DNA of 29,390 nucleotides from an uncultured virus (IMG/VR IMGVR_UViG_3300030330_002454) (lineage: Duplodnaviria > Heunggongvirae > Uroviricota > Caudoviricetes): the IMG/VR virus record IMGVR_UViG_3300030330_002454; one strand, 5' to 3'. Shown here one piece after another: positions 5,426 to 25,774 of this stretch. The translations under genes and the position numbers were made by a program. The notes below the pieces were generated by a model. That model did no database searches. It had not been told where the DNA came from and saw nothing but the letters and a program-made list of their open reading frames with translations. How positions within the stretch are numbered: position 1 is the first letter of the stretch; each line of letters opens with the position of its first letter.

Positions 5426-5433
5426 TATATTTG
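5426..5433 (+). promoter_or_regulatory. Candidate Bacteroidota sigma-A -7 promoter element (TAnnTTTG)
   Basis: TATATTTG in the short gap between the muzzle stop (5415) and ATG 5440. No clear -33 TTTG element upstream. Confidence 0.4.
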
Positions 5434-5439
5434 CTAATT

Positions 5440-7702: not shown

Positions 7703-10045
7703 ATGACTATAAAAAAATATCAAGTAGGCGGAACAGCTTTATTATCAGGTCCTATACAGGCTAGAGAGTATGTTCCTTTACCGTATGCTCAAGCATTTGA
7801 AATGCAACGTTTAAACGAAGCAGATAGAGCTACAAAAGAACAAGGCATACTTAACATGTATAAAGGCTTTTATGATACAGCTATGCAAGCACCTCCTAAT
7901 ATGCAAGATGAAGCGCTAGCAGAAATAAGACCTTATCTAGATAGAATAGAACAAGGATTAGCAGAAGCAGGAGGAGACCCTCTTAGGTATCGTGGAGGTA
8001 TGGATGTGATGAAATCATTCTACACTGACATGGCTACTGGTAGACTAGGCTCTCTGCAACAAGCTGGTTCTCAGTATGCTGCAACTAAAAAAGATTATGA
8101 CAAGCTAAATGAGCTTCACATGAGAGGTAAAGGTGGTGTGCCTGAGTCTATATCTAACTTAGCACTACAAATAGGGTTACAAAATGCGGAAAACTCTTAT
8201 GACGCAGGGGGACGTGCAGTTTTTAGTCCCCCAAATCTTGTAGAACATGTTAATGTATTAGATGAACTAGGTTCATGGTTATCTCAGAAAGAAGCTGATG
8301 GTTTTACAGATTCTCAAGGAAACAAAATAGAACAAATAACTGCTGAGACTTTACTTCCTATAGCCAAAAACTACATGATGATGGACGATAGAACAAGAGG
8401 TTCTATAATGCAAGAGATAGATTTAAACATGGCAGCAGGAAACTATCCTATGGATAATGTAAACATGGATGAAATCTTGAAAGATAAAACATATGCTAAG
8501 TTGTATAATGATGCAATAACAGCTATGCCTTTAGGTTTGCCTGAAGATCAAGCTCAAGCCCTTGCTTCTCAACAAGTTTATAGAGCTAAGTTAATAGATG
8601 ACAGAATGAATAATTTTGCAGTAGCAGGAATACAACCTTTCTTACAAACTGATGTTACTCAAAAACAAAACGAAACTGACATAAGTAAGCAAGTACCATA
8701 TACAGTTTCTGATAGTCCTGTAATACCTATTGATAGAAGCACCGCTATGACAATAGGAGCTGAAATAATGGATATGGATGCTCAACTCAAAAACTTACAA
8801 GCACAAATAAATGCAGGAGGACCTCAGACAGAACAAGTTTTGAAACAACGGGAAGAATTATTAAATAGAAGACAGTCTGCATTATTACTAGCCGCTAATA
8901 AAAGTGAAGCGATGATTAATGATAAAGCTATGAAATCTCCACTCTGGAGAGACGAGGTATTTACTATAAAGTTAAAAGGTTATTATGATGATGTTAAAGA
9001 TGCATCTGATATAAACTTAAGATTAATGGAAGGCGTGTCTTTAAATGACTTTACAAATAAAGCTAAAATATTATCTGCTATTCCTGGATTAACAAGTATT
9101 GGTTTACTTCCTGGTAGTCCTGCAGGAATAATGCAGTTACAAGGTTTAACAGTTGGAAACTATCCTTTACTTGGAGAATATTTTGAAGAAGGTGAGTCTA
9201 TAATGCCTTATTTACAGGCAGCACAATGGATACAAAGAAAAGCTAAACGTGCAGATGTTCTAAATACTTATGAAAAATCTTTAAGAGTACCTCTTGGACA
9301 AGAAGACTCTTACCTAGAAAACTTGACACAAAACTTAACTCAAATGGTGCACAACGGAAATTTAGCTTTCGCTGATTTCTATGCAAACGAAGATGTAACA
9401 GCTGAAGTAAAAAACTTTAAACGTCCTATAGAGTCTATAAAACTACAGCCTACTTTATCTATGATTGACGGGTCGCCTGCATATAAGTTAGATTTCTATG
9501 ACTATAATAAAGTAAAAGGAAGTAAAGATGTTGAAATAAGTGGTGTAGAAAAAACTGAGTATGTTAGAGGAACTAACCAAAGAGACGAGTTAATTAGATA
9601 TGAAGATTTAGGAGTACAATTAATAAACTTATCACAATCAGACCCGAATACACAAGCATCACAAGCTTACCTTAAAGATGGTATACAAGTAGTTGCTAAC
9701 GCTAGAATTCTTAGTCCTATACAAATGACTGGAATTGAGACTGCAGATTTATTAAGAGGTAGTGAAGATGCTCAGGGTAATCCTTATGTAGAAATAAATG
9801 TTCCTGGATTTAATTTTAAAGTACGTCGTACAGATTATCCTGGAAATGTATCTATATTTGATCTTAGAAATAATGAAAATAAGCTTATACCATATTTCCC
9901 TAATGGAGAAGATCAACCTGCGCAACCTATAAGAAGCGGTAGCCTTGAAGATATAGCATACCAATATTTTATGTTCTCACAAGAACCAATAGATAACTCT
10001 GGAACTTTAGGACGTCAAATTATACAACAATACATTAATAGATAA
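7703..10045 (+). CDS. Putative internal virion cargo / ejection protein
   Basis: 780 aa, predicted mostly helical, Cys-free. N-terminal 'KKYQVGG...YVPLPY' pattern. Located between the first cargo gene and the giant-protein cluster. Confidence 0.6.
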   Translation: MTIKKYQVGGTALLSGPIQAREYVPLPYAQAFEMQRLNEADRATKEQGILNMYKGFYDTAMQAPPNMQDEALAEIRPYLDRIEQGLAEAGGDPLRYRGGMDVMKSFYTDMATGRLGSLQQAGSQYAATKKDYDKLNELHMRGKGGVPESISNLALQIGLQNAENSYDAGGRAVFSPPNLVEHVNVLDELGSWLSQKEADGFTDSQGNKIEQITAETLLPIAKNYMMMDDRTRGSIMQEIDLNMAAGNYPMDNVNMDEILKDKTYAKLYNDAITAMPLGLPEDQAQALASQQVYRAKLIDDRMNNFAVAGIQPFLQTDVTQKQNETDISKQVPYTVSDSPVIPIDRSTAMTIGAEIMDMDAQLKNLQAQINAGGPQTEQVLKQREELLNRRQSALLLAANKSEAMINDKAMKSPLWRDEVFTIKLKGYYDDVKDASDINLRLMEGVSLNDFTNKAKILSAIPGLTSIGLLPGSPAGIMQLQGLTVGNYPLLGEYFEEGESIMPYLQAAQWIQRKAKRADVLNTYEKSLRVPLGQEDSYLENLTQNLTQMVHNGNLAFADFYANEDVTAEVKNFKRPIESIKLQPTLSMIDGSPAYKLDFYDYNKVKGSKDVEISGVEKTEYVRGTNQRDELIRYEDLGVQLINLSQSDPNTQASQAYLKDGIQVVANARILSPIQMTGIETADLLRGSEDAQGNPYVEINVPGFNFKVRRTDYPGNVSIFDLRNNENKLIPYFPNGEDQPAQPIRSGSLEDIAYQYFMFSQEPIDNSGTLGRQIIQQYINR

Positions 10046-13000
10046 TGGCAAACGGAACTGATGAACTAGCAGCACCTGGAAGTGCAGGAGTAAATATAAC
10101 TCAAATACCATTAGGTGCAGATAATACTCCTGAACCAATTGCTCCTCCTACTTTTGAACTAGCTACTCCAGGAAAGTCTGGAGTGGAAAAGTTAGATTTT
10201 GATCCTATAAATTTAACACCTGATATGCCTAGCTTTAGTCCTGAAGTCGCAAGACAGAGAGACATATTTAGAAAGTACGGTGTAGATATTAGGCCAGGAA
10301 TAAGTTTAGAAGGTACCGCAGGTAGGTTACAATCTAATCTTTCTAAATGGGCAAACGGTATAACAAAAGGTCTTGGTACAGCAGTAACAACTTTTGCAGA
10401 ACCATTTGTTGATATACTTGTAGGTATACCTACTTCTATAGTTACAGGAAAGTTTTCAGGATTTTATAATAATGCCGCTTCAAAATCTCTTGATGAGTTT
10501 AATGAGTATCTTAGAAAAGAATTACCTAACTACTATACGCAAGCAGAAAGAGACTATGGTTTTTGGAGAACTTTAGGTACATCAAACTTTTGGGCAGACC
10601 AAGGTATGCAAGGACTAGGATTCTTAACAGGTGCTATAGGTAGTGGTTATGTTGTTGGCGCATCAAATATTATAGGAAGTACTATTAGAGGTACAGCTAT
10701 GGGGGGCGTTAGAGCTTGGAGAAATCTTACAAACGCGTTTCGTGGACAACAGTTAGCGGGAGCTAGGAGTGCTAAAAGTATTGACAATGTAAAAAATATA
10801 CTTGGAAGAATAAATTACACTTCTGAAACAGCTAACATGTTTGGTGCAGGTATAATATCTGCATTTGGTGAAGCTGGTATAGAAGCAAGAGAAACTCGCC
10901 GCAGAGCTCTACAAACAATAAAAAATCTAAGAGCTACAGGTGACTCAAGATATGTAGGCATGTCTGATAAAGAAATAGAAGAGCTTATAGATACTGCAGG
11001 TAATATAGCTTTTGGTTTAAACACTGCAATTGTAGGCGCCTCTAATATATATCAATTTGGTAAACTATTTTCTAGAAGTTGGAAATCTACATCAAGTAAA
11101 TACTTAAATAGTCTAACCGAGAAAAAAATGGTTGATGGGGTGTTGAGATATGAAGCAAAAGAACTGCCTAAAGCCTGGAAAAGATATTTTGGAGTAGTTA
11201 ATTGGTTTAAACGTCCTGCAGCTGAAGCCTTTGAAGAATGGTCTCAAGCAGCTGTAAATGTAGCAGCCGAAGATTATTTTACTGATGTGTACTCGTCAAA
11301 TCCTATTGAGGATATGACAGATATGTTAGAAGGTGGTGTAGGTGTAATCGGATCTCTATTTAGAGGTTATATGGAAGCGCCGCAGAGAAAAGAAGGGCAA
11401 CAAGCTATATTCTTAGGGGCCTTATTAGGTAAGTTAGGGGAAGCAGGCGCTTTAGTTAGAGAAGATGGTATGACAACCAGACAAGAGTGGATCGATAGAT
11501 ACGATAAATCTGTTGCTCTTGCAGAAAAACTTAACTTACTAGAGCCTGAATCTAAATTATATAGATTATTAAAAGCATTTAATGAAGGAGCTATATCCCA
11601 AGCAAAGATGGACCAAGCTTTAAAAGACGGTGATATATTTAAGTATAAGAATGCTGAATCTCAAGCCGTATTCTCTTTAATAGATGAGTTTATAAATGCA
11701 GGTAAAATAGAAGACCTAAAAGCATTTGTTAAAGATATAGGTGGCCTATCTGAAAACGCTTTTAAAGAAGTTATTGGTTTAAATCCAGAAACTAAAGTTA
11801 AAAGTCCTGCTGAACAAGCACGTATAATAGAAGATAGAATTAAATTTATAGAAGATCAAAAACCTAGAGTAGATAAGTTTGTCTCTTCATTACAAAATGT
11901 AACAGATCAAGAAAGAATACTTATAGATGCTGGTATAAGATACTACTCTTACATGATTGATATTTCAGATCAAAGAGAAGAAGAATTAAGTAAAGAGCTA
12001 GCAGATATTACAAATGGTTTAGTAAGTTGGCAAGCGCTACAAGCAGTTAAAGGAAAGTCTGCAGAGCTAGCTAAAGTACTAACTGATATGAAAGAAGCTT
12101 TCCTTAAAAGTGATAACTATACAGATGTAAAAGGACAAGAAGCTTACGTTTTACTTAGAGACTTAGCTAAAATTGCAGAGCTAAAAGAACAGCATTATAA
12201 ACTTCTTAATGCAATAACAGAAACAGAATCGTTATCTAAATTACAACTAAAGATAAAAAATAAAGAAAGAAAAGCTAAAGAAGATAAAAAGAAAGCAGAG
12301 AGAATTAAATCCGAAGTTGTTAAAGAACAAGAAGATGATATAATAGAAACTGTAGACGACAGAGTTGAAACAAATGCTAATCAAAGAGTAAAACGTAGAG
12401 AGCAAATAGGTACTAAACGACAAAGAAAATTAATGCGTCGTAAGCAGGCCTTAGAAGAACAGTTAGCTGTTACACCTGAAGAACAGAAAGCCCAAGTACA
12501 AGCAGCTATAGATGAGATAACACAAGCTATTGAAGAAAAAGCAAAGACTGTCAAAGAACAAGTTGAAGCTGATATAGAAAAAACTTTTGAAGAAGCATTC
12601 CCTGAAACTGCAAAAGAAAAACAAGCGGCTAAAGAACAGGAGGATGAGCTACAAAGGTTAATAGAGGCAGAAGAGCGAGGCGTAGACTTAGAGACTACAG
12701 AAAATATATTGATAGGTAATCTATTATCGTATCCTAATGCCACTGTAAGTGTTAGATTTAATGGCGAAGAAGGAATCTTGTTTAAGGAAGAAGATGGCAC
12801 AGTCGTATTCCAGAACACAGAAGGACAAGAAACTGAAGTTGGCAAGTTTTTAGACGACCAAACTCTATCTGAAGTAGGAGTAGAAGTTCTACAAGATCAG
12901 GTAGGGCCTATAGCAATAAGTATTATTGCAGACGGTAGAACGTTTGAAATAGGAGGACAATATTATAATAACTTATTTATAAATCCTCTGTCTGCAATAG

Positions 13001-15741
13001 ATCCATTTGTATTTAGAATAGCACAAGAAGGATTTCAACCTAGAAGAGTTACACTATTTGATTCAGACGGAAATAAAGTTACCTTTACAAACCCATTCTT
13101 AGTACAAGAGTTATCTAGATTGATAACTATGATAGAATTAGTTAGGCAAGAAGCTATTACAGAAATGCAACAGTTTAATGCAGGACTAATGGAGTTTGAG
13201 TTCCAGGGGGAGACATACTATGTAGAAGATTCTATAGAAAAAAAGTATACTACAGCTTTTGAAAGGAAACAAGGTTTAGAAAATGTTATTGAAGTTCCTG
13301 TAGTAACTGTTTATAATAAGAATTTAAATAAGTTACGTTCTCCTAAAAAAATAGCTCAAGTATTAAGAGCTAGAGATGTGTTTATTGATAACTACATTCA
13401 AAATAAAATTAACGCTTATATAAACGAATATGAACAAGACCTTTACGGAACGCAACCTGATGCGACTACTGAATCTAGATCTGAAGAAGAAGTTAAACGT
13501 GACGCCCAGGAAGCTTCAAGCGAACGTGTTAGCCCAAGAGATATTGAAGACGATACGCCAACGCCCGACAAGACAGACAAACAAGCCGCAGTAGAACCTA
13601 CTGCTGAAGAAGTAAATAGATCACAAAGTATATTAAGTGAAGGTGAAGTGACTGTTTTAACTCAAGCAGAAATGGATGAGCTAGGAGTTAGTACAGAAAA
13701 CGATCCTAATGTATACCCTGACTCTCAAGTAGCGCCAGAAGCTGCAACTCCTATAATTAATACAGAAGAAAGTAAAGATGCTGTAAACGATGTTGTAGAA
13801 GAGCAAGAGATACCTGATAATAGTACAGTAAGGAGTAGTAATTACGAAACAAATAAAAATGGTTCTAATGTATTAGGATATGAAGTAGTTGCTTTAAGCA
13901 CTATACAATCTTTAGCTTGGAAGTCTGCTAATCACCCTGACAATGAGGGAATAGACGTTGATCAAATAGTAAAAGATTTAACTGATGTTTTAGAGAGCGG
14001 AGTTAACCGTGAAGGTACAGCTCTGGAGTTTACTATAGATCTAAATGACCCTCAGCTTACTGACATAAGAGAAATGGCTCCTATTCTTGCTAAACTTAAG
14101 AAAGGAACAAGACTTACAGAAGACGAGATAGGTAAAGTAGCTATGAGAGTTAGTATGGACATAGATGGTAAAAAGGTGTATGCATATATACATAGACTGG
14201 ATTACGTAGATGATCATATAAAACCTGAAGAACAAGAAGCCGCTAGAAAAATGTTAATGGCTGACAGAACTAAAATCTATGAAGATTTCTTAGCAGGGCG
14301 TAAGACTAAGTCTACTATAAAAGAAATGACAGGTGGGCATTTAGTTACTCAAAGAGTAGTAGAGTATCAATCTGTATTAGAACTTCTAGCAAACCCTGAA
14401 ATGACAAGACTAAAAGCTGCTGCAGGGGAAGATTTTATTACTTTTTATATCGCTGCAAACGGTGTATACATAGATGAGAATGGTGAAAACGGATTCCGTA
14501 AAGAAGAATACATTGCAAATACAGATCAAGACGGTGCAATTTTTACATCTCTTATTATGGCAAACGGAAAAAGATTTCCGCTAAGATTATTTGTAAAAAA
14601 TTTATCAGATGAAATTGCTTATCTTATATATAATATTTATGGAGAAGCATTAACTTCGCACAACGGAAATATAAATAAAAACATGCCTATAAAAGCTTTT
14701 AATAATCTAAAAAATAGAACTAAAGATGTACGTATAGTAGCAGAGTTTTTAAATATAGTAGAATCTGTAATGGAATCTAAAGAGGTGGGTCCTACATATA
14801 AACAAATGTTAGACATGCTTATATTCCACGGTGCAAAAACAAAAAGTAAAGTATCTCCTACAATTGTATCTGGTAAAGGTAAGTTACGTTTAGGTGATGT
14901 AGAAATAACTACAAAAGAGTTTAGCGAAAGACGTGAAGAAATAGTTAATTGGTTAAAGGCAAACAAAAGACATCATGTATCTAAAAACTATATGAATTCT
15001 AAAACAAATAATAAATATAACTCGTGGTTATTAACTAATCAAATTGTTGGTACTGATGCTGTTGCTACAGAAAATGGTACGCCGTTTATACAACCTACAA
15101 TACGTTATGCACCTCTTAAGTCGGAGGCACCCGCAGCTAAAAAAGAATCTGTCAGCACAAATCAGGTATCAATTAGTGATGAAACAACAGATGTAGAAAT
15201 CGGACCAGATGCAAATGTTATAGATTTCCAAGATGCTAATGGTAATTATATAGGAAAAATATCTTATGATAATACAACAGGACAAGTAGCTTCAAGTTTT
15301 GCTAGTGTAGCTTCGGAATTGAATGAAGAATTAAGAGGTAAAGGCATAGGAAAACAAATGTATATATTAGCAGGAGAACGAATAGCTTCTAAAGGATTAA
15401 CATTTAAATCAGATAATTTTGCACAACAATCTGCTGAAGCTAAAAATCTTTGGGAATCTTTAGTACGAGAAGGTAGAGCAGTTAAAACTGCTACAAACTA
15501 TGAGTATGTCTCACGTGAAAAAGAATCTCCTAAACCGATTCAGCCTGAATCTAAACCATCACCTGGTCCTGGAGTAATGCGTTTGGAAGACTTACCTAAA
15601 GACTTCCAAGCAGAAGCAGCTGCTGCTCTAGAAGCATTATCAGGAGGTGCAGCTTTTAATATAGATGCAGACTTAGGCCCTGCAGCACCATCTAAAAAAT
15701 CAGATATAACAAAATCTCAAGATAAAAATAACTGTGAATAA
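10045..15741 (+). CDS. Giant virion (ejected) protein preceding the RNA polymerase, with N-terminal membrane-like segments, coiled coil, acidic linker and C-terminal GNAT-like domain
   Basis: 1898 aa. Gly-rich hydrophobic segments ('GLGFLTGAIGSGYVVGA', 'AIFLGALLGKLG'), 'EAGIEA' and 'EAFEEWSQ' motifs, K/E-rich coiled coil, 'LRGKGIGKQMY' near the C-terminus. Position corresponds to phi14:2 gp65. Confidence 0.7.
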   Translation: MANGTDELAAPGSAGVNITQIPLGADNTPEPIAPPTFELATPGKSGVEKLDFDPINLTPDMPSFSPEVARQRDIFRKYGVDIRPGISLEGTAGRLQSNLSKWANGITKGLGTAVTTFAEPFVDILVGIPTSIVTGKFSGFYNNAASKSLDEFNEYLRKELPNYYTQAERDYGFWRTLGTSNFWADQGMQGLGFLTGAIGSGYVVGASNIIGSTIRGTAMGGVRAWRNLTNAFRGQQLAGARSAKSIDNVKNILGRINYTSETANMFGAGIISAFGEAGIEARETRRRALQTIKNLRATGDSRYVGMSDKEIEELIDTAGNIAFGLNTAIVGASNIYQFGKLFSRSWKSTSSKYLNSLTEKKMVDGVLRYEAKELPKAWKRYFGVVNWFKRPAAEAFEEWSQAAVNVAAEDYFTDVYSSNPIEDMTDMLEGGVGVIGSLFRGYMEAPQRKEGQQAIFLGALLGKLGEAGALVREDGMTTRQEWIDRYDKSVALAEKLNLLEPESKLYRLLKAFNEGAISQAKMDQALKDGDIFKYKNAESQAVFSLIDEFINAGKIEDLKAFVKDIGGLSENAFKEVIGLNPETKVKSPAEQARIIEDRIKFIEDQKPRVDKFVSSLQNVTDQERILIDAGIRYYSYMIDISDQREEELSKELADITNGLVSWQALQAVKGKSAELAKVLTDMKEAFLKSDNYTDVKGQEAYVLLRDLAKIAELKEQHYKLLNAITETESLSKLQLKIKNKERKAKEDKKKAERIKSEVVKEQEDDIIETVDDRVETNANQRVKRREQIGTKRQRKLMRRKQALEEQLAVTPEEQKAQVQAAIDEITQAIEEKAKTVKEQVEADIEKTFEEAFPETAKEKQAAKEQEDELQRLIEAEERGVDLETTENILIGNLLSYPNATVSVRFNGEEGILFKEEDGTVVFQNTEGQETEVGKFLDDQTLSEVGVEVLQDQVGPIAISIIADGRTFEIGGQYYNNLFINPLSAIDPFVFRIAQEGFQPRRVTLFDSDGNKVTFTNPFLVQELSRLITMIELVRQEAITEMQQFNAGLMEFEFQGETYYVEDSIEKKYTTAFERKQGLENVIEVPVVTVYNKNLNKLRSPKKIAQVLRARDVFIDNYIQNKINAYINEYEQDLYGTQPDATTESRSEEEVKRDAQEASSERVSPRDIEDDTPTPDKTDKQAAVEPTAEEVNRSQSILSEGEVTVLTQAEMDELGVSTENDPNVYPDSQVAPEAATPIINTEESKDAVNDVVEEQEIPDNSTVRSSNYETNKNGSNVLGYEVVALSTIQSLAWKSANHPDNEGIDVDQIVKDLTDVLESGVNREGTALEFTIDLNDPQLTDIREMAPILAKLKKGTRLTEDEIGKVAMRVSMDIDGKKVYAYIHRLDYVDDHIKPEEQEAARKMLMADRTKIYEDFLAGRKTKSTIKEMTGGHLVTQRVVEYQSVLELLANPEMTRLKAAAGEDFITFYIAANGVYIDENGENGFRKEEYIANTDQDGAIFTSLIMANGKRFPLRLFVKNLSDEIAYLIYNIYGEALTSHNGNINKNMPIKAFNNLKNRTKDVRIVAEFLNIVESVMESKEVGPTYKQMLDMLIFHGAKTKSKVSPTIVSGKGKLRLGDVEITTKEFSERREEIVNWLKANKRHHVSKNYMNSKTNNKYNSWLLTNQIVGTDAVATENGTPFIQPTIRYAPLKSEAPAAKKESVSTNQVSISDETTDVEIGPDANVIDFQDANGNYIGKISYDNTTGQVASSFASVASELNEELRGKGIGKQMYILAGERIASKGLTFKSDNFAQQSAEAKNLWESLVREGRAVKTATNYEYVSREKESPKPIQPESKPSPGPGVMRLEDLPKDFQAEAAAALEALSGGAAFNIDADLGPAAPSKKSDITKSQDKNNCE

Positions 15742-18700
15742 TGAGTTGTAAAGTTAGTATAGATAAATTATCAGCAAAAGCTCTAAACAATCCTTCACAG
15801 GATTCTTTATTGTATAAACAATTATTAAATATATCTGATAATAACGGAGAAGTAGCAGAGAGACTGTATAACGTGTTAGATACACAAGAGTTTAAAGAAT
15901 GGTTCCAAGGATCTGATTATTTAAACACAGTTGGTGAGCCTGCACTAGCAGGAGAGTTTTATACAAATGCCAAAGGAGAAAGATGGTGGTCTAAAGCAAT
16001 AAACAAAAAAGATGCAATTACTAAGTTTCCATTTGGACTAAATAGAGTTCCTGGACTTACAGCTGCACAAGTAAATGATATTGCAAACTTTTCTTATGCA
16101 TACATGTTACGGGCCACTGATAGTGTTGAAAATACAGACGCTATAAAATTGTCTTCTATCGTAGGTATCGTAAATTCCCTACACGGTATAGCAGCCGATA
16201 CAAACGACATGGAAAGATTTAATGTTCTTGAAATCCTAAAACAGGATATAAGAACAAAAGATTCTAAGTTTCTAAAACTTATGCAAGATAGACTTAGAGC
16301 TGACGGCCTTGTAGAAGATGAAATTAGTGAAGAAGACAGAACTAGTCCTTTAAACTTAAAAGAAAAATACTTTACATCACCAAAAGACAGTGCATCTGTT
16401 AGTTTAAAGCTAATGATAAAATCATTAATGGACACTAGTAAAACAGATAACACTTTAGGTAGACCTATACCTGCAAACTATAGCGCTACATTTAACTTAC
16501 TGCTTAGAGATCTTGCAGGAGTTGTACCTTATAATAATGGTGAGGGTATAGTAGATGTATACGACGTATATATAGATAAACTACGAGTTCTCTCTGTAGA
16601 TTACCCATATTTAAGTCAACTAATTGCAAAACTAGAAAATGCAGAAGAGCATGTAAAAACTAGGTTTGTAAATGGATTAGCATTAGAAAAACTAAATTAC
16701 ACACAAACACTATACGAGGGAGGCCTTAGACAAAAGATATACAAGCTAGGTATGCCTAGCGCACAACAAGGATTTGAGTTAATAAGATCTGAGTGGACAG
16801 AAAACTTTAAGAATAAAATGTTTACGTATAATAAGAACGCAAACATAATTCTTAACGAAGACTATGCCAAACAAGCAATAGTAAAATACAGAGCTCTACA
16901 AAAAAATGCACGAAAAGTATCTAAAACTAGTTTAGATAGTGTACAAAAAGAGTTTAGAAATCTATTGAACTTTATTGGTATAGAACTATCTGATAAAGCT
17001 GTAAAAAAGTTTTATAATAGTAAAGAGTCTATATTTGAGGCTCTAGAGTCTACTCCTGGTAACCTTGGTTTTGTCTTTAACGATAAAACTGCAGGTATAC
17101 CATCTCTAATAAAAAGATTTGGAGAGCGTGCTAAAGGTAGAAGAGATATAATAGAATTATCTGATAGAGATTTACCTATTAAAAATGAACGCTCTGTACG
17201 AAAGCTTGCTATAGAAGAAGAAAGATTTAGACCAGAGTTTGTAGATAACAGTACTTTAGGCCCACAAGGTGACATGTATTGGGGATTTGGTACGTATAGT
17301 TGGATGGCGCAAGTGCTAGACACAATGAATTCAGAAAATAGTGATTATCTAGAGCGTCTAGCTAAACTACCTTATAATATAAATTCTAAGTGGATAAATC
17401 AGCTGCAGAATGGAGCACAGGTAAATAGATCTGTATTTATGCAGATGAAAGAAGATAATAGATACGAAGGTACTAAATACTTCCAACTGCAGGAACCTGA
17501 TCAGCTAGCAGATAGAATTGCTAGAACTATGAATGGAGAACATATTCTTATGACTCCAGGTAACTCCAGAACACTATATACACTATCAGGATTTGCATAC
17601 GAAAGCAGCGGTGTAAATGTTACATACAATCCTAAAACTAAACAATACGAGTTTGAGTATGTGTTTGATGAAAATGGTAAAAATAATGTTATTGAAACAT
17701 TTAGAGGATATATAGAAGATGAGTTTGCTTCTATGGATGCAGCATATGAACAAGTATTTAACGGTAAGCTTGCAAAGAAAGATCAAGTAGTACATTATCA
17801 TTACGATAAAAATGGAAATGAACGAGATTCTAATGGTAGGCCTGCAGGTAATGCATTTAAACATACATTGTTTCCAGAACTTAGTTTTGGTGAAGCTTAT
17901 TCTCAAGGTTTTTATACACAAGATGGTAAACCTATATATAGCTCTGAAATGATTGCAAACGAAAGAGTCACTGACTTAATTAAAATGCAATATGAAAAGT
18001 ATGTAACTAGTCAAATAGAACAAGCTGTAGAGTATAAAATAATAGATAGAACATTAGCAAATAGAGAATTACCTACAAACTTACTAAAGACAGAAAGATT
18101 TGCAAAACTAGGAGATCTTGCTAACGGTAGAGTATTTACAGATTATGTATTTTCTAATGTTGTAGCAAACGTAGAGTCAACTAAATTATTTGTAGGAGAC
18201 ATTAAGTTCTACAAAAATCTAGATGACTTTGTAAAAAGAGCTAACCTGTATACAACTTCTGTAACTCAAATGAGATTTATAAAAGGCGAGGTACACTCTG
18301 AGTATCTGCAGGCAACCGTAGATGACATATTCTCCCCGTCTAAGTATCTACAAGATATAGAAGGGTATGAAAATGTAGACCTTACTGATGCAACTACCTG
18401 GATTACACCAGAGCTACAAAAGCAAAGAATGAAAGGGTTTGGTGAGTTTACTCCTGAAGTAGAAGCGGCGTACAATCGTATGATGAAAGGGGAAATGCAG
18501 GTTTCTGATATACTAAAGCTTACACCACGTAAAAGTGCAGCTAGAGGGACAGAAATAAAAAACGGTATGAATGTACCGTATAGAGAAAAAACTGCGGAGG
18601 TAGTATTATGGCCTGGACTAGTTAAAGACGCAGGACTTAAGTCTTTATATGATGCAATGGTGCAAGAAGAAAAAGACTACAAAACAATGACAGGCGCTAC

Positions 18701-21695
18701 ACTAGGAATGTCTGTATCTGTAGAGTCTGCAATTAAAGTTGGTGCAGGTACAAAAACTAAGATAGACGATGATCAGGGTAACATAATAGAAGATGTTACA
18801 TTAAATCCAATTGTAAGATCTCATTTATTGTACGGTAAACAACAAGAGACAAAAACAAAAGGAATAAAATCTACAACATTTGCTTCACAGCTGAAGTTAA
18901 ATATTATCGCAGATATTGATGACACAACTCTTATTGGAAATAGATCTGGTGTAGAATGGAGAGAAGAGGTGGAAGCTAATGAAATCGCTATATCTAATTT
19001 AGGTAGAGAAGAATTCTTAACTAAATATGGTATAGATGAAAACTTTGATGTAAACGAAGAGACACTATATAAAGCGCTTATAGATACATTATCTAGACAG
19101 TCATTTCCTGATACAGCACTTATAGAAGGATTAGAAAATGGGTTAAAGTTTGACTCCATATTCCAATCTAGAAAAAAGGTAATGAACTTATTAGCTAATG
19201 AGCTTACTAAATCTACAGTAACTTATAGTACAAACGGGGCCAATATGGTTCAGATAAGTTCTTTTGGTTTATTTCAAAAACCTGAAAGTATAACAGCTCT
19301 AGAAGAAACAAATAAATCTAGTATTAGATACCTAAAAGACGGTAAACTAAAACCTCCTAGAATAGAAAATGGTAAACTCATAATGGGAGATATATTTATA
19401 CCATACTCTTATATAGAAAATATCCCAGGACATGAAAAGATGTCTACCGCTGAACTGAAAAAACGTATAGGTAAAGATGTACTCACAGTAGTAGGCTATC
19501 GTATACCAAACCAATCTCTAGCATCTACTGATGCATTAGAAATTGCAGGTATTCTACCTAAAGAAGCTGGTGACACTGTAGTTGTATACGAAGAGATGAC
19601 TGCAAAGACAGGGAGTGACTTCGATATTGATAAATTATTTATGCTTATACCTAATGTAGAGTATAATAAAGAAACACAAAGGCTAGAATTAATAGACCCT
19701 AATGGTAAAACTAAAAAGTCTTTAGAAAACAAAAGAATTCTTTTATATAAAGAGTTATTCCAAACTGCAGAACAGTATCCTAGAATAATTAAATCTATAG
19801 ACACTAATAAATTAAAAGCTAATGCGTATGAGCTAATAGACTTAGCGCAAGAGCAAGATGACTTTGATGGGTTAAAACTATTTACAGGTGAATTCCAACA
19901 ACAACTTAAAACAAGATTCTCTGCAGGTGCAGCTGGTGTAGGTGCTACAGCAAACAACACTATTGATAATGTAATGGGCCAATCAGCAAAACTACATGTT
20001 CCATATATAGGAATAGGAGCATCTGCTAGAATAGGTGATGAAATTAGAACTATACTATACAGCACAGAAAGAGTAAATGGTGATCTTATATCTGAAGCTA
20101 TGTCTGGTTACATGAACGCATTTGTGGATATAGAAAAAGACCCATACATTACTAAAATAAACTTTACAAGGCCTGTAATGAACGTTGCATTCTTAATGTT
20201 ACGTGCAAAGGTAGATTTTAGATTTATAAATGCATTTATTAAACAGCCTAAAATTGTAGAGTACGCTAAAGAAGCTGCACTAGGTAGATCTAAATTATTA
20301 AATCCTAATTCGTTTGTAAGCGAAGAGTCTGTACTACAAAAACTAGGTGCAGAACCAGCTCTAATAACGCCTAATATGACATTAGAAAATCTGTTAAATG
20401 AAATAAATCCTGATACAGATAACACAGAATTATTACAAGACGAAGTTTTAAATTATTTTGCATTTCTACACCCGATAGGTGAAAAAGTATTTGCACAAAA
20501 CTTAGCCTCTAAAGTACATACAGAAGGTGTAGGACAAGACTTACTAGCTGCAAAATTAATGATTGCAAGAATAGATGAAATATCTAGTGATCCTAATCAA
20601 GTTGTAGCTAATTTTGAAGCTAAGTTTAGAGAAGGTACAATGCTAGGAGCTTATTTAGAAAATGGTCCAGAATTATTTGAAGACGCATTCTCTGATAAAT
20701 TCTTATCAGGTAGATTTGATGCAGTTAACGGGCAAATAGAACAGCTGTTAGGAGATTATTGGAAGTTTGACTACAGAACTAGAGCTAGAATAGAAGACGC
20801 AATGTACTCTTATATGTATTCTACACATGACTTTACAGGATCTTTAGAATCTCTAGTTTTTGATACAACAACTGCAAAATCTTTAATACCGCAGTTTTTA
20901 AATATGAAAACAAAACGTCCTGAAAGTATACTATTAAATGTTTTACTAAAACATAAATATAATAGAAATGCACCAGGTAACTATGTACTGCCTAGTCAAA
21001 TATATATGGCTAACACTAAGAACATGCCGCCTGACACAGTAAAATTAGCAAGACAAGAATGGGAAGACATGCTAAACTCTGAAGATGAAGAAGTTAAAAA
21101 GTTTGCAAACGATCTTGTATCGTACGCATACCATACATCAGGATTTAGAAGAGGTATACAAACTTTCCATCAACTAGTTCCTACTATTTGGAATGTAGAA
21201 AGTACATTTAATGATACTGTAGATTACTTAAACTTAACTGATGATATTTCTATAGGCCAAGGATTAGAACAAGTAGTGCAGCATGAGCATACAAATAGAT
21301 CTTTAGCGCCTAGAGCTAGAAATGTTAAATCAATTCAACCTGGTATAGAATTAAGCGAAGGGTTTGTATCTAAACAAAGTAATCCATATTTAACTAGAGT
21401 AGTAGCAGATCAATTAGCACTGTATAAACTATACGGCGGTAGAGTAACTTCTGAAGGAGGGCCTGTACAAAATGTATACGCCAGAATAGATACACTAGGG
21501 TTTAAAGGTGAAGATGGTTTTAGAGTAGTAGAATATAAATTTGGGGAACCAAATGTAAAGAGTATCTTTGCAGATAACAAAGTAGAACTAAGCGAAGCTT
21601 TAAATGAAATTATAAATGGTAATCTTTTAATCGGAAAAGAATTACAAGAAGCTATGAAAGCAGATAAAGCTAGTGAAATAAATAAATGTAAGTAA
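15741..21695 (+). CDS. Virion-packaged single-chain DNA-dependent RNA polymerase (phi14:2 gp66-like, two-barrel family)
   Basis: 1984 aa. Catalytic 'KTGSDFDIDKLF' (DFDID at 19617-19631) preceded by 'VVGYRIPNQ'. Also 'DFVKR', 'DATTWIT', 'SAIKVGA' and 'NAFVDIEKDP'. Size and context match crAss-like virion RNAPs. Confidence 0.92.
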   Translation: MSCKVSIDKLSAKALNNPSQDSLLYKQLLNISDNNGEVAERLYNVLDTQEFKEWFQGSDYLNTVGEPALAGEFYTNAKGERWWSKAINKKDAITKFPFGLNRVPGLTAAQVNDIANFSYAYMLRATDSVENTDAIKLSSIVGIVNSLHGIAADTNDMERFNVLEILKQDIRTKDSKFLKLMQDRLRADGLVEDEISEEDRTSPLNLKEKYFTSPKDSASVSLKLMIKSLMDTSKTDNTLGRPIPANYSATFNLLLRDLAGVVPYNNGEGIVDVYDVYIDKLRVLSVDYPYLSQLIAKLENAEEHVKTRFVNGLALEKLNYTQTLYEGGLRQKIYKLGMPSAQQGFELIRSEWTENFKNKMFTYNKNANIILNEDYAKQAIVKYRALQKNARKVSKTSLDSVQKEFRNLLNFIGIELSDKAVKKFYNSKESIFEALESTPGNLGFVFNDKTAGIPSLIKRFGERAKGRRDIIELSDRDLPIKNERSVRKLAIEEERFRPEFVDNSTLGPQGDMYWGFGTYSWMAQVLDTMNSENSDYLERLAKLPYNINSKWINQLQNGAQVNRSVFMQMKEDNRYEGTKYFQLQEPDQLADRIARTMNGEHILMTPGNSRTLYTLSGFAYESSGVNVTYNPKTKQYEFEYVFDENGKNNVIETFRGYIEDEFASMDAAYEQVFNGKLAKKDQVVHYHYDKNGNERDSNGRPAGNAFKHTLFPELSFGEAYSQGFYTQDGKPIYSSEMIANERVTDLIKMQYEKYVTSQIEQAVEYKIIDRTLANRELPTNLLKTERFAKLGDLANGRVFTDYVFSNVVANVESTKLFVGDIKFYKNLDDFVKRANLYTTSVTQMRFIKGEVHSEYLQATVDDIFSPSKYLQDIEGYENVDLTDATTWITPELQKQRMKGFGEFTPEVEAAYNRMMKGEMQVSDILKLTPRKSAARGTEIKNGMNVPYREKTAEVVLWPGLVKDAGLKSLYDAMVQEEKDYKTMTGATLGMSVSVESAIKVGAGTKTKIDDDQGNIIEDVTLNPIVRSHLLYGKQQETKTKGIKSTTFASQLKLNIIADIDDTTLIGNRSGVEWREEVEANEIAISNLGREEFLTKYGIDENFDVNEETLYKALIDTLSRQSFPDTALIEGLENGLKFDSIFQSRKKVMNLLANELTKSTVTYSTNGANMVQISSFGLFQKPESITALEETNKSSIRYLKDGKLKPPRIENGKLIMGDIFIPYSYIENIPGHEKMSTAELKKRIGKDVLTVVGYRIPNQSLASTDALEIAGILPKEAGDTVVVYEEMTAKTGSDFDIDKLFMLIPNVEYNKETQRLELIDPNGKTKKSLENKRILLYKELFQTAEQYPRIIKSIDTNKLKANAYELIDLAQEQDDFDGLKLFTGEFQQQLKTRFSAGAAGVGATANNTIDNVMGQSAKLHVPYIGIGASARIGDEIRTILYSTERVNGDLISEAMSGYMNAFVDIEKDPYITKINFTRPVMNVAFLMLRAKVDFRFINAFIKQPKIVEYAKEAALGRSKLLNPNSFVSEESVLQKLGAEPALITPNMTLENLLNEINPDTDNTELLQDEVLNYFAFLHPIGEKVFAQNLASKVHTEGVGQDLLAAKLMIARIDEISSDPNQVVANFEAKFREGTMLGAYLENGPELFEDAFSDKFLSGRFDAVNGQIEQLLGDYWKFDYRTRARIEDAMYSYMYSTHDFTGSLESLVFDTTTAKSLIPQFLNMKTKRPESILLNVLLKHKYNRNAPGNYVLPSQIYMANTKNMPPDTVKLARQEWEDMLNSEDEEVKKFANDLVSYAYHTSGFRRGIQTFHQLVPTIWNVESTFNDTVDYLNLTDDISIGQGLEQVVQHEHTNRSLAPRARNVKSIQPGIELSEGFVSKQSNPYLTRVVADQLALYKLYGGRVTSEGGPVQNVYARIDTLGFKGEDGFRVVEYKFGEPNVKSIFADNKVELSEALNEIINGNLLIGKELQEAMKADKASEINKCK

Positions 21696-24600
21696 TGAGT
21701 TGTACTATAAAAGAAGATTTAATAAAAAAATACACCAAAGAGTTTAATCCTGTAGAGGGAAAACAAATTGCGGAGGGTGTATATGAATATATACATACGC
21801 CTGCATTTACTAGAGAATTTGGTGATTTTACAAAAGGATTTACAAAAGATACAACACAACTTAAAGATGGTTATCCTACTGTAGAAGCTATAGAGGCACA
21901 CTTTAAAAGAAAAGGGATGACTTCTAAAAAAACTCTGCCAACTGCTTACATGGATTATATAGATACATTTACTCCTAAAAGCGCAGAGCAACTTAGAAAA
22001 CTATTAATAAAGAAAACGCAGATTGCATACAATAACGTAGCTAAAGATGCTGCAGAGCTTCAAGAAAGTTTTGAAGGTGGTGTAATGATGAAAGCAAAAG
22101 ACGATGTTAGACGTCGTGCTAAAACAAGATTAAAAAATCAGTTAGAAAAAATACTAAATAATCTAAAAGTAAAAAATACTGAAATAGGACTTGCAGAGTA
22201 TGTAGAAGAAGTCGATACATTACTTAATAACGTAAATAAAGCATTAGATACTCTAGCTTTAGATGTATCAGATTATTATCAAAACTTAACTAAGTTTACT
22301 TATTTTAATGCTATTGAAGATGTAGTTTATTTAATAGATAATAAAAGCTTATCAGTAAAAAAATATTTTGAGAAAAAAGGTATAAAATATAAAGATTTAG
22401 TATCTCGTATAGTTAGTACAAGAAAAAGATTAATTGAAGGATACGTAGATAGGATAGGAGATGTTTGGGGAGAGTTACCTGGAAAGCAATTAAGAATTGC
22501 TGAGAGAAAATTTAGAACTGCTTTTGAACCTAGAAGTGTATGGTTAAGAAATAACCCTGGTGCTACAAAAGCAGATTATCAAAAAGCAATAGATGAGTAT
22601 GTAGCAAATAGAGTAGAGCAAGAAGAGCAAGCTATAAAAGACAGTCAAAAAGCATCTATTAAAAATATGCTAATAAATAAAGGACAAGATATTAGTTTTC
22701 TTGATGCATTATTTGGAAACCCTAGAGATCTTACAGATGACATTATACAAATAGCTGTAGAAATATTAGACTCTGCAGACTATAATGTAATGCGTGAAAC
22801 CATAAACAAAACAAAAGAGGCCTATGATCTATTCCAGCGATTTAAAGTTGGAAAAGATACTAGAAGTATGGAGTCTTTGTATGGAAATTTACTAGCAAGA
22901 GATGAAAAAGGTAATTTATCAGGCTATTTAATTAGCCGTACTAAATCACAGTATTTTATAGACAGGAAAGAAAAAACATCGGCTATAAAAAAAGCAGAAG
23001 AAGAATTTGGAGAAGATAGCGCTGAAGCTATAAAAGCTAGAAGAGAGTACACTCAGTGGTCTAGAATAAATCAGGTTAAAACTGAAGATGGTTACAAACC
23101 TGCAGCTAAATGGAATAACCCTAAGTTTAAATATTTTGCAGATAAAAAGAATAAAGGGCAAGCTGATTATGATATGTATCAATTTTTAGTGGGGCTTGCA
23201 AATAAACGAGACCAAAACTACTTAGGATACCCTGCAAGATTTAGATTGCCTGCCATAGAAAAATCAGGGTTAGAAAATCTATTTGAAAATGGTGTAGTAA
23301 ATTGGGTAAAAACAGGACTTGGAGATACTTTTAAAATACGAGCATCTGATGTAGAACTGCATAAAGAAAATCCAGACGATTTAGAAATGAGTGTTTGGAA
23401 CACTTTAAAAAGACAAATTAAAGTACTTGTAGACGCAGATACAACTGAGTTAAAAACAATACCTAAATACTTTAGAAATTACGATAAAGTAAATGCAAAG
23501 ACACAGTCGTACGATTTACTTAGTATATATCTAATGGATTATTGGGGGTCTACAAACTATGCAGAAAAATATAAAGCACTGCCTATGCTAGAAGTATTTA
23601 GAGAATCTCTAGCTACAAGAAAAGTGGTGCAAAGAACTTTTGGAGGTAAAACTAAAATAGCTGCAAAACTAGGATTTGGAGATCAAACACTTGCTACAGT
23701 TCCTGGAGACCAGTCTAACTCCTATAAAGCTTTAAGTAGTTTAATAGAAGACAGATTATATGGAGTTAAAGCTCTAGGTAATCCTTTTGTACAAAAACTA
23801 ACATCTTCTTTACTAAAATATACAGGTAACTTATTTTTAATAGGTAACTATTTTTCTGCAGGAGCTTCTGTATTTCAAGGTAAAACTATGACATTTATAG
23901 AATCAGTGGGTGGTATAGACTTTAATAGAAAAGATGTGCTAAAAGCAGAAATGAAATACGATGCTGACATAGTAAATATGACTGCAGATATAGGTAAAAT
24001 TGTACCTAGTTCTAAAACAGGACTACTTTCTGAAATATTTGAATCGACACAGGATTTTAGTGCTGTAGCCAAAAAATTTGCAGGCGCTACAAGAACTAGT
24101 CAAATAGCAAATACTAATTCTTTGCATTTTGTAACTAACATGGCAGAACACTATATACAAAACACATTAATGTATTCGTTTCTACAAGGTATAAAAGTTA
24201 AAAATTCAAAAGGAGAGTATATAAATAAAGAAGGGGAAGTTGTTAAGTCAAGAGAAGAAGCTATGACTTATGATGAAGCCTATGAAATAGACAATAAAGG
24301 AAAGGCACCTAGACTTAAGATAAAATCTTTTGTAGGAACAGGAGCATCAATAGAGCTTAAAAGTGGGTTAGAAATATCTTTAAAAGATAGAAGAAAAGCT
24401 GAATTCCAAGTAAAAAGATACCTGAATCATTTAAATCGTAGATTAAATGGTAACTATACTACAAATAACCAAGCTATGGCGCAACGCCATGCAGCTGGTA
24501 AAGCAGCATTTATGCTTAGAAAATGGTTAGAACCAGGTCTTCGTAGAAGATATAGAGGTATAAGCACATCTTTAATACCACATGAAGCACTTACGGCAGA

Positions 24601-25183
24601 AGATTTGTACTATAGTAGAGAAATACAAGATCTAGACGAAGGTACATATACAACTACAGTTAGATTTATTAGAAATTTATTTAGAGACTATAAAAACTTC
24701 TCTTTAGAACTAACAAGTGATAACTGGGCTAAACTATCTGCTAGAGAAAAAGCTAACATTTTGAAAACTGTAACCGAAGTAACTATAATGATTATAGCAG
24801 CTAATGTTAGTGCTTTACTATACGGAGCAGCACAAGATGAAGATGATGAATTCATTCAGAATGCATTAATGTTAAATGCTTTTTACACACGTAGATTATA
24901 CGGAGAACTTAGAGCATTTACATCTATTACAGAAGGACTTAGAATATTAAGATCTCCTGCAGCATCTATAAGTTTAATACAAAATGGATTAGAAGTAATG
25001 GATCAGCTTTATTCAGATATAAAGTCTGTAAGCGCTGGAGGTGAGTTTGAAAGATATGAACAAGGTAAGCGTAAAGGAACACTAAAACTTGAAAAAGAAT
25101 TTAAAGATTTAGTTCCTGCATGGTACCAAACAGGTAGAAAAATAGACGAAGCAGTAGGATTTTTATATAAACCAGTAAAATAA
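21695..25183 (+). CDS. Large virion (ejected) protein following the RNA polymerase
   Basis: 1162 aa, helical. C-terminal 'LNGNY...MLRKWL..G..RRY...EGTYTT...RRLYGEL...LRSPAAS' pattern and hydrophobic 'VTIMIIAANVSALLYGAA'. Position corresponds to phi14:2 gp67. Confidence 0.7.
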   Translation: MSCTIKEDLIKKYTKEFNPVEGKQIAEGVYEYIHTPAFTREFGDFTKGFTKDTTQLKDGYPTVEAIEAHFKRKGMTSKKTLPTAYMDYIDTFTPKSAEQLRKLLIKKTQIAYNNVAKDAAELQESFEGGVMMKAKDDVRRRAKTRLKNQLEKILNNLKVKNTEIGLAEYVEEVDTLLNNVNKALDTLALDVSDYYQNLTKFTYFNAIEDVVYLIDNKSLSVKKYFEKKGIKYKDLVSRIVSTRKRLIEGYVDRIGDVWGELPGKQLRIAERKFRTAFEPRSVWLRNNPGATKADYQKAIDEYVANRVEQEEQAIKDSQKASIKNMLINKGQDISFLDALFGNPRDLTDDIIQIAVEILDSADYNVMRETINKTKEAYDLFQRFKVGKDTRSMESLYGNLLARDEKGNLSGYLISRTKSQYFIDRKEKTSAIKKAEEEFGEDSAEAIKARREYTQWSRINQVKTEDGYKPAAKWNNPKFKYFADKKNKGQADYDMYQFLVGLANKRDQNYLGYPARFRLPAIEKSGLENLFENGVVNWVKTGLGDTFKIRASDVELHKENPDDLEMSVWNTLKRQIKVLVDADTTELKTIPKYFRNYDKVNAKTQSYDLLSIYLMDYWGSTNYAEKYKALPMLEVFRESLATRKVVQRTFGGKTKIAAKLGFGDQTLATVPGDQSNSYKALSSLIEDRLYGVKALGNPFVQKLTSSLLKYTGNLFLIGNYFSAGASVFQGKTMTFIESVGGIDFNRKDVLKAEMKYDADIVNMTADIGKIVPSSKTGLLSEIFESTQDFSAVAKKFAGATRTSQIANTNSLHFVTNMAEHYIQNTLMYSFLQGIKVKNSKGEYINKEGEVVKSREEAMTYDEAYEIDNKGKAPRLKIKSFVGTGASIELKSGLEISLKDRRKAEFQVKRYLNHLNRRLNGNYTTNNQAMAQRHAAGKAAFMLRKWLEPGLRRRYRGISTSLIPHEALTAEDLYYSREIQDLDEGTYTTTVRFIRNLFRDYKNFSLELTSDNWAKLSAREKANILKTVTEVTIMIIAANVSALLYGAAQDEDDEFIQNALMLNAFYTRRLYGELRAFTSITEGLRILRSPAASISLIQNGLEVMDQLYSDIKSVSAGGEFERYEQGKRKGTLKLEKEFKDLVPAWYQTGRKIDEAVGFLYKPVK

Positions 25184-25347
25184 TGACATTTACTTTTGGA
25201 ATACAATGGGCAAAAGGTTTATTATTTGGAATAAGACACTTCCAACCAGAAGAATATGCTCCGTACTATGAAATACAATTTTTTTTAGGATTAATACAAA
25301 TTTTTATAATTATAGACAATGGCAACACTTACGATAACATTGACTGA
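25183..25347 (+). CDS. Small hydrophobic protein, 54 aa, not in the ORF track (MTFTFGIQWAKGLLFGIRHFQPEEYAPYYEIQFFLGLIQIFIIIDNGNTYDNID)
   Basis: ATG overlaps the previous stop (TAATG), as at four other junctions in this operon. Fills the 135-nt gap and overlaps the next gene's start by 29 nt. Confidence 0.7.
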   Translation: MTFTFGIQWAKGLLFGIRHFQPEEYAPYYEIQFFLGLIQIFIIIDNGNTYDNID

Positions 25348-25774
25348 AGCCGTTACAATGGGTGACGGTAGTACTGATAGAGGTACAACAAATACACATA
25401 CTGAAACAGTAAACGAAGTATCACATAGAATTATGGATGTAGGTACAGCGTATGTAGATGTAGTTAAATTTGGTGCAGCTGCATCAGCAGGGACATTTAA
25501 AGATGGATCTGTACAGTATATGCGTATTACAAATTTAGACGGATCTGCAGATATTACACTAAGAGTAACACAAGCAGATGCTGAATACTTTGTAAAACTA
25601 GAATCCGAAGATAATTTTCTTTTAGGAAATAGTTTAATGAATGCTATAGAAGATGGAGATAGTTCTAGTACAATAGGTACTACAGACGACGCTCTAACTG
25701 CTATCGATAAAATATCAGCAAAATCTAGTAGTGGTACAATACAAATAGAAGTATTTGTAGCTTGTCAAGATTAG
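25319..25774 (+). CDS. Hypothetical protein, Thr/Ala/Asp-rich beta-sandwich-like; possible virion structural protein
   Basis: 151 aa with 'VQYMRITNLD' and C-terminal 'IQIEVFVA' alternating beta-strand patterns. Last gene of the + strand module, followed by a hairpin. Confidence 0.6.
   Translation: MATLTITLTEAVTMGDGSTDRGTTNTHTETVNEVSHRIMDVGTAYVDVVKFGAAASAGTFKDGSVQYMRITNLDGSADITLRVTQADAEYFVKLESEDNFLLGNSLMNAIEDGDSSSTIGTTDDALTAIDKISAKSSSGTIQIEVFVACQD

Follow-up and report, generated by a model that had tools for sequence, protein, structure and literature searches.

The closest described precedent for the arrangement reported here comes from the cyanopodophage A4 (Anabaena phage A-4L, Saffermanviridae), in which cryo-electron microscopy (cryo-EM) revealed that Cys1715 of gp27 is disulfide-bonded to Cys5 of gp26 and that gp27 inserts its C-terminal helix into gp26 (PMC12002296, PNAS 2025). 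Where that paper deals with the bond, it treats it as a structural detail of the pentameric pre-ejectosome and not as a general rule. Here, we describe a similar placement of cysteines in a stretch of 29,390 nucleotides from an uncultured virus (IMG/VR record IMGVR_UViG_3300030330_002454), which at its full length is referred to below as the window. Three consecutive giant proteins encoded in it, protein A, the virion RNA polymerase (below, the polymerase) and protein C, have their only cysteines at the ends that face each other, and so have the consecutive giant ejection proteins gp27 and gp26 of phage A4: in the A-4L record, the only cysteine of gp27 (1717 residues) lies 3 residues from the C-end, the only cysteine of gp26 (1114 residues) is residue 5, and the neighbouring gp29 is cysteine-free. 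Comparison of A4 gp26–gp29 with the window proteins revealed no homology (best blastp E-value 0.11, nothing significant by phmmer). The two systems also differ in that A4 has one link and no RNA polymerase, whereas the pattern in the window corresponds to a chain of two or more links.

Strong cysteine depletion is known from the N4-like phages, in which, as presumably in the phage of the window, a giant polymerase and its partners are ejected. N4 gp50 and the DEV gp71, gp72 and gp73 homologs are described as essentially cysteine-free, which was explained by the avoidance of disulfides in the periplasm (PMC11445570). In those proteins the depletion is total, whereas in the window one cysteine is kept at each inner end, invariant or nearly so in the relatives. 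The fold of the N4-like polymerase is reported to differ from that of the crAss-like one (PMC13434306). Among cultured crAss-like phages, gp67, gp66 and gp65 of Cellulophaga phage phi14:2 are virion proteins by mass spectrometry according to the notes in its record, and the same was reported for gp47, gp50 and gp49 of Bacteroides phage crAss001 (PMC10172136). The latter paper describes disulfides that form in the tail and portal vertex of crAss001 virions, and cargo that must partly unfold for constrictions under 50 Å; its methods include mass spectrometry (LC-MS/MS) of both reduced and non-reduced virions, and its authors call for more work on the mechanism. A preprint on the polymerase (10.1101/2020.03.07.982082) gave the catalytic motif of gp66 the name DFDID, assigned a Zincin-like domain to gp65 orthologs, and described forms of the crAss polymerase block that are fused into polyproteins, for which it suggested cleavage into parts. 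The terms cysteine, disulfide and Cys have no matches in the text of that preprint version; the available text of PMC10172136 has none for cysteine, and its disulfide passages all concern tail and portal-vertex proteins. A search of the full texts of papers found no description of a terminal-cysteine rule in crAss-like phages.

Cysteines of the giant cargo proteins

The window contains a crAss-like cargo block, in which two cysteine-free proteins are followed by three giant, putative virion proteins (Table 1). Protein A is an ortholog of crAss001 gp47 (blastp E-value 5.9e-19) and phi14:2 gp67 (7.8e-9), and protein C is an ortholog of phi14:2 gp65 (2.1e-83) and crAss001 gp49 (2.3e-46), so that by blastp the neighbours of the polymerase gene are gp67/gp47-like and gp65/gp49-like genes. 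The polymerase itself is an ortholog of crAss001 gp50 and phi14:2 gp66 (tblastn, 29% identity, 9e-76), and it matched the gp66 crystal structure entry in a phmmer search (PDB 6vr4_A, 7.9e-85). In an alignment of 18 polymerase sequences (A1), GSDFDIDK was invariant at residues 1291-1298, with the catalytic motif formed by D1293, F1294, D1295, I1296 and D1297.

The original prediction, made from the letters of this DNA alone, held that only four cysteines occur in about 6,600 residues, and that they are paired across the junctions of the three giant proteins. The exact count is four cysteines in 6,578 residues of five consecutive plus-strand proteins. The single penultimate cysteine of protein A, the two cysteines of the polymerase and the one of protein C are where they had been read, and the two upstream cargo proteins indeed have none. 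The six other open reading frames (ORFs) of the window have 27 cysteines in 3,098 residues.

Cultured phages have an orthologous trio with the same terminal-cysteine pattern. In phi14:2, the sole cysteine of gp67 (1797 residues) is its last residue, gp66 has cysteines at residues 3 and 2179 of 2180, and gp65 (1421 residues) has one at residue 3. In crAss001, the only cysteine of gp47, whose gene is on the opposite strand from those of gp50 and gp49, lies 3 residues from the end, the only cysteine of gp49 is residue 5, and gp50 (2412 residues) has cysteines at 5, 1334 (internal) and 2404 (9 from the end).

Conservation of the cysteine pairs among related loci

As a scan of viral contigs with a single protein gave 2 loci only, an alignment-based profile was used instead, and it retrieved 481 relatives. 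The best 80 loci were kept and, together with phi14:2 and the window, were grouped at 70% identity into 63 clusters with one representative each. In the cluster tally, a cysteine was counted as terminal when located within 8 residues of an end. Among the source tags of the closest protein relatives were tara, ena and jgi; near-identical DNA was not found in the phage collection searched.

A total of 44 out of 53 polymerase homologs had a cysteine within 5 residues of the N-end and another within 3 residues of the C-end. This held down to about 23% identity in the polymerase, and terminal cysteines in general were retained down to about 22%; most polymerase homologs had no other cysteine. The nine homologs without both terminal cysteines include one that its source marks as partial and two that break off within the catalytic motif. 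Protein C homologs had a cysteine at residues 3-5 in 24 of 26 cases, the two without it being 783 and 865 residues long and covering 68% and 74% of the query. All 22 protein A homologs had a cysteine at most 11 residues from the C-end (at most 8 in 18 of them), and none had one at the N-end. Moreover, in the alignments of 43 polymerase C-termini (A2) and of 43 N-terminal 750-residue pieces of protein C homologs (A3), which have a mean column identity of 11%, the cysteine was the sole invariant column.

At the junction between the polymerase C-end and the N-end of the next giant protein, both cysteines were present in 58 clusters, one of them in none and neither in 2 (60 observable clusters). 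At the junction between the C-end of protein A and the N-end of the polymerase, where these are encoded by separate genes, the respective numbers were 27, 3 and 0 (30 observable clusters). The outer ends of the chain were bare: a terminal cysteine was found at the N-end of the first protein in 0/50 and at the C-end of the last protein in 0/56 clusters. The N-terminal cysteines occupied residues 2-7, most often residue 3 (51/95), and the C-terminal ones lay 1-9 residues from the end. As a control, we used 155 flanking ORFs of the 63 related loci, which contain 1.25% cysteine and have a cysteine in the first 8 residues in 12 cases and in the last 8 residues in 17. Compared with them, cysteine is strongly suppressed in the interior of the giant proteins, to 0.013% in loci read with translation table 11 and 0.107% in loci in which TAG is read as glutamine. 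Thus, conservation of the terminal cysteines in syntenic homologs, their co-occurrence across junctions and the topology of a linear chain with cysteine-less outer ends, all of which the original prediction had put forward or made its test, were borne out by the related loci. The cultured orthologs and these tallies indicate that the cysteine pattern is a rule at the level of proteins, neither a product of chance nor a DNA motif.

The pairs persist even where small cysteine-rich ORFs stand between the giant genes (loci L010, L015, L019, L021 and L035). These small or mid-sized inserts are located at 7710-8204 in L010, 8017-8520 in L019, 14502-15299 in L021, 8327-9556 in L035 and 16282-21466 in L015, and may be mobile endonuclease-like elements.

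About 30 loci gave long ORFs only when TAG was read as glutamine (translation table 15). The recoded loci are L044, L047, L048, L050-L053, L055-L059, L061-L066, L068-L071 and L073-L081. Their giant ORFs are 1,851-5,353 residues long, all above 3,100 except in the short locus L062, and table 11 fragments the ORFs in all of them but L044, in which an ORF of 4,934 residues is open already under table 11. The internal cysteine content of their cargo proteins is about eight times that of the table-11 loci.

Loss of a cysteine pair upon gene fusion

Protein A and the polymerase are encoded as one ORF of 3,513-5,353 residues in 24 of the 63 clusters. None of these fused proteins has an N-terminal cysteine, and the cysteine pair of the A/polymerase junction is absent from all 24. 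In 9/24, the whole fused protein has a single cysteine, located at its C-end, where it faces the N-terminal cysteine of protein C. The change between the fused and the separate state occurred repeatedly: a FastTree tree built from 58 polymerase cores (the five rows without the motif used to cut out the core were left out) requires at least six changes, at least three of them forced by well-supported branches. A longer chain was found in L033, in which an extra protein of 1167 residues (16420-19923) with cysteines at residue 4 and 2 residues from the end is placed between the fused A-polymerase and the last protein.

By this distribution, the terminal cysteines are evolutionary pairs: both are kept or both are missing, and fusion of the two proteins goes with the loss of both. 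The comparison of fused and separate forms further indicates that the pairs are under strong selection and, in evolution, interchangeable with a peptide bond. In contrast to the cleaved polyprotein suggested in the preprint, the cysteine data point the opposite way, to separate proteins that are re-joined end to end.

A common N-terminal module

A new feature emerged from the comparison of the proteins that start with a terminal cysteine: according to profile matches, they have a common N-terminal module of about 65 residues. When the full-length profiles of the polymerase (A1) and protein C (A4) were compared, their only match comprised the first 60-70 residues (probability 90%, E-value 1.6e-6). 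The match rose to a probability of 98.7% with motif-selected subsets, but this comparison is circular. The module follows the pattern MxC..SxL..A..Y..F..FGDW..GEP, with F(G/Q) also found at the FGDW position in the polymerase form. A hidden Markov model (HMM) of the module matched 54 of 189 N-termini of giant ORFs at an E-value below 1e-3, 24 of these 54 having been in the seed; all 54 were polymerases or downstream proteins, and no upstream protein was among them. In the fused lineages, the HMM matched 15/23 C proteins and none of the 24 fused A-polymerase proteins. The module was not found at the internal junction of these fused proteins either (0/24, best independent E-value (i-E) 0.53). 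A Pfam scan of seven N-terminal modules gave nothing above the cut-off.

Outside the crAss-like cargo, the module led to another class of phage proteins. The module profile matched 3,004 proteins at E-values up to 0.001 among 1.84 billion representatives. Among the best 150 of them, 64 had the whole module at the very start, and 62 of these 64 had the N-terminal cysteine. The other 86 of the best 150 (within P0102-P0249) had only the core of the module, a widespread repeated element, internally and 2-6 times per protein. All six of these core-only proteins that were scanned with Pfam were polyvalent proteins, with the core just ahead of ART-PolyVal domains. Phage polyvalent proteins (ART-PolyVal PF18760, MuF_C, LPD23) thus resemble the crAss cargo in having the A..Y..F..FGDW..GEP core. 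They have it at internal positions and without an MxC start, whereas in the crAss cargo it occurs strictly at the N-terminus, after the cysteine. Additionally, PF18760 was present in two distant homologs of protein A. These similarities suggest that the start of the crAss polymerase and of protein C corresponds to a domain junction in a polyvalent protein. We infer that the module after each N-terminal cysteine is likely a docking site for the C-terminal tail of the preceding protein.

A disulfide-linked thread as the preferred reading

The best reading of these data, and on balance a probable one by comparison of the sequences and by analogy with phage A4, is that protein A, the polymerase and protein C form a disulfide-linked thread that is cut by reduction in the host. 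In the assembled particle, a disulfide at each cysteine pair would give a linear A-S-S-polymerase-S-S-C chain of 5,044 residues. The module of about 65 residues would catch the C-terminal tail of the preceding protein, the thread would stay unbranched since the links are confined to the extreme ends of the proteins, and the absence of other cysteines would prevent wrong cross-links. Such a thread could pass the narrow tail partly unfolded, one protein after another, in a fixed stoichiometry and order, and the reducing cytoplasm of the host would then cut the links and free the polymerase. Stoichiometric packaging, ordered threading and redox release would be plausible functions of the chain. 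The original prediction of a tail-to-head tether has gained from the conservation and co-occurrence of the cysteines, the bare outer ends, the loss of pairs upon fusion and the precedent of phage A4, while the identity of the junction DNA, which it had also cited, lends it nothing. A more far-reaching version can be offered only tentatively. According to it, the chain would be a redox-gated pseudo-polyprotein, in which modules dock the tails, oxidation locks them, a thread of at least 5,000 residues exits in order, and host thiol reductants cut it and switch on the polymerase; this way of delivery would be convergent in podophages, and fusion and disulfide would be interchangeable.

Several observations speak against a disulfide-linked thread, or at least against its strict form. 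All its support consists of comparisons and of one analogous structure in the unrelated phage A4. A co-fold of residues 1-700 of protein C (A4) with residues 1825-1984 of the polymerase (A1), with a score of 0.00 and an uncertain fold of the partner, counts neither for nor against the thread. In L054 and L072, the junction between the genes of a split polymerase has no cysteine on either side, and therefore the continuity of the chain is not obligatory; the relevant C-terminal cysteine of L072 lies 9 residues from the end, and an 871-residue protein of L054 has an N-terminal cysteine without a terminal partner upstream. The only cysteine of protein A is located 18 residues from the end in L010 and 32 in L029. 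In L046, the upstream ORF ends in a cysteine and the next ORF has none, with an overlap of 7 nucleotides and a possible frameshift between them. Some internal cysteines occur in crAss001 gp50 and in the loci with recoded TAG, and the C-terminal tails in front of the cysteine appear low in complexity and unconserved. Moreover, phage assembly occurs in the reducing cytoplasm, so that a disulfide could arise only once the proteins have docked non-covalently and are subsequently oxidized.

The last point bears on the possibility that the paired ends touch without a disulfide, their thiols sharing a metal ion with other ligands or packing non-covalently. Co-occurrence and fusion data show that the two cysteines have a joint function, not how they exert it, and assembly in the cytoplasm would favour metal sites over disulfides. 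However, there are always two cysteines per junction, with one pair left after fusion and an extra pair in L033, and two thiols do not make the usual tetrahedral site. Nor is there a conserved histidine, aspartate or further cysteine beside them in A2 and A3, in which nothing but the cysteine itself is invariant. In phage A4, cysteines in this arrangement are seen as a disulfide in the cryo-EM map, and the near-total purge of cysteines is better explained if a specific redox pairing is guarded than if a metal is bound. We thus find a contact of this kind unlikely, and one metal site of four cysteines shared by all three proteins was rejected, since only one pair remains after fusion and L033 has an additional one. 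Somewhat less likely still is that each terminal cysteine binds some other partner (a capsid, portal or tail protein, DNA or lipid) or carries a modification of a free end. Cysteines close to chain ends are accessible, and many inter-protein disulfides were reported among the tail and portal-vertex proteins of crAss001. However, the need for a free end would extend to the outer ends, at which not a single cysteine was counted; one-sided junctions between the polymerase and protein C would not be missing from all 60 clusters; and several independent fusions would not remove both cysteines at once.

Two further explanations remain. If a general purge of cysteines from ejected proteins, as in the N4-like phages, had merely spared harmless chain ends, the terminal cysteines would be left-overs. 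Suppression of cysteines in ejected proteins is indeed known from N4 gp50 and the DEV gp71-73 homologs, but those N4-like ejection proteins are described without such terminal cysteines (PMC11445570). Neutral survival predicts cysteines at the background frequency of 8-11% of ends, as compared with 97% of the inner ends and 0% of the outer ones, and it does not predict a sole invariant column in very divergent alignments. Contradicted by the tally of ends, the background controls and the invariance in A2 and A3, this explanation seems very improbable. The other starts from the DNA of the junctions, described in the original prediction as nearly identical at 15733-15749 and 21687-21703, and proposes that these 17-mers are a translational-coupling or regulatory element that encodes cysteine incidentally. 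The two 17-mers agree at 15 of 17 bases, a degenerate pattern of them has 2 matches in the window as compared with 0.05 expected, and a TAATG stop/start overlap is present at both cysteine junctions. The same overlap, however, is used at the cysteine-less junctions between the 304- and 1456-residue ORFs and between the 780- and 1898-residue ORFs. In relatives, the DNA of the junctions differs while the cysteines stay: phi14:2 has TGC for TGT, alanine for serine and a non-overlapping second junction, and retains all four; crAss001 retains them with gp47 on the opposite strand; and genes inserted between the giant ones leave the pairs intact. The resemblance of the two junctions in DNA, not conserved in the relatives, is thus secondary and without weight, and a DNA-level motif as the source of the pattern, refuted by phi14:2, the strand layout of crAss001 and the inserted genes, is next to impossible.

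A conserved end-to-end tether, if true, would explain the stoichiometry and order of delivery, the avoidance of cysteines in the cargo proteins, and the evolutionary alternation of fused and split gene forms. If the pseudo-polyprotein reading is true, the same pattern in the unrelated cyanophage A4 would turn it into a general mechanism, reached by convergence, by which podophages deliver several giant proteins as a single string. For annotators, the terminal-cysteine rule provides a simple sequence criterion by which members of the chain can be spotted among unannotated giant phage proteins.

Gene content of the window

Seven co-directional plus-strand ORFs together fill positions 131-25183 of the window; the features that concern the cysteine chain are collected in Table 1.

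Table 1. Positions of the cargo proteins, their cysteine codons and conserved elements in the window.
Feature	Position	Strand	Observation
Cys-free cargo-like protein, 754 aa (amino acids)	5431..7695	+	0 Cys; no PHROG or Pfam match
Cys-free cargo-like protein, 780 aa	7703..10045	+	0 Cys; no family match
Protein A, 1898 aa, first link of the putative chain	10045..15741	+	Sole Cys at residue 1897 (...KNNCE*)
TGT codon, Cys1897 of protein A (penultimate residue)	15733..15735	+	Sequence reading
Virion RNA polymerase, 1984 aa, middle link	15741..21695	+	Cys only at residues 3 (MSCKV...) and 1983 (...INKCK*)
N-terminal module of the polymerase, residues 1-69	15741..15947	+	Matched by profile comparison with the start of protein C; module alignment A5
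TGT codon, Cys3 of the polymerase	15747..15749	+	C3 nearly invariant in alignment A1
Catalytic motif DFDID, polymerase residues 1293-1297	19617..19631	+	Invariant columns in A1
TGT codon, Cys1983 of the polymerase (penultimate residue)	21687..21689	+	Sole invariant column in 43 polymerase C-termini (A2)
Protein C, 1162 aa, last link	21695..25183	+	Sole Cys at residue 3 (MSCTI...)
N-terminal module of protein C, residues 1-63	21695..21883	+	Homologous to the polymerase module; module alignment A5
TGT codon, Cys3 of protein C	21701..21703	+	Sole invariant column in 43 N-terminal 750-aa pieces (A3)

The 1456-residue ORF matches the muzzle protein gp44 of crAss001. The 754- and 780-residue proteins are cargo-like proteins upstream of the cysteine chain and outside it. 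The ORF of the former starts with TTG; an ATG three codons downstream, at 5440, would give a protein of 751 residues (MKKINK...). In the related loci, cysteine-free ORFs of 600-930 residues are also found at its position.

No Pfam domain, ART-PolyVal and LPD included, reached the cut-off in any of the five proteins, and a plain HE..H pattern (HExxH) is absent from all of them. The Zincin-like protease assignment made for gp65 orthologs is therefore unconfirmed in the window, where neither this pattern nor a Pfam match speaks for it.

Directly after protein C, an ORF of 151 residues (25319-25774, plus strand) without a PHROG or Pfam family match has a single cysteine 3 residues from its C-end (…FVACQD). 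L002 and L003 have this cysteine at an unchanged position, and in L004 it lies 10 residues from the end. The ORF falls outside the chain rule, because protein C has no C-terminal cysteine that would face it. The cargo block is followed by three minus-strand ORFs at 25851-29390, two of which are labelled by PHROGs as rIIB-like and rIIA-like lysis inhibitors; the cysteine content of these three ORFs is ordinary.

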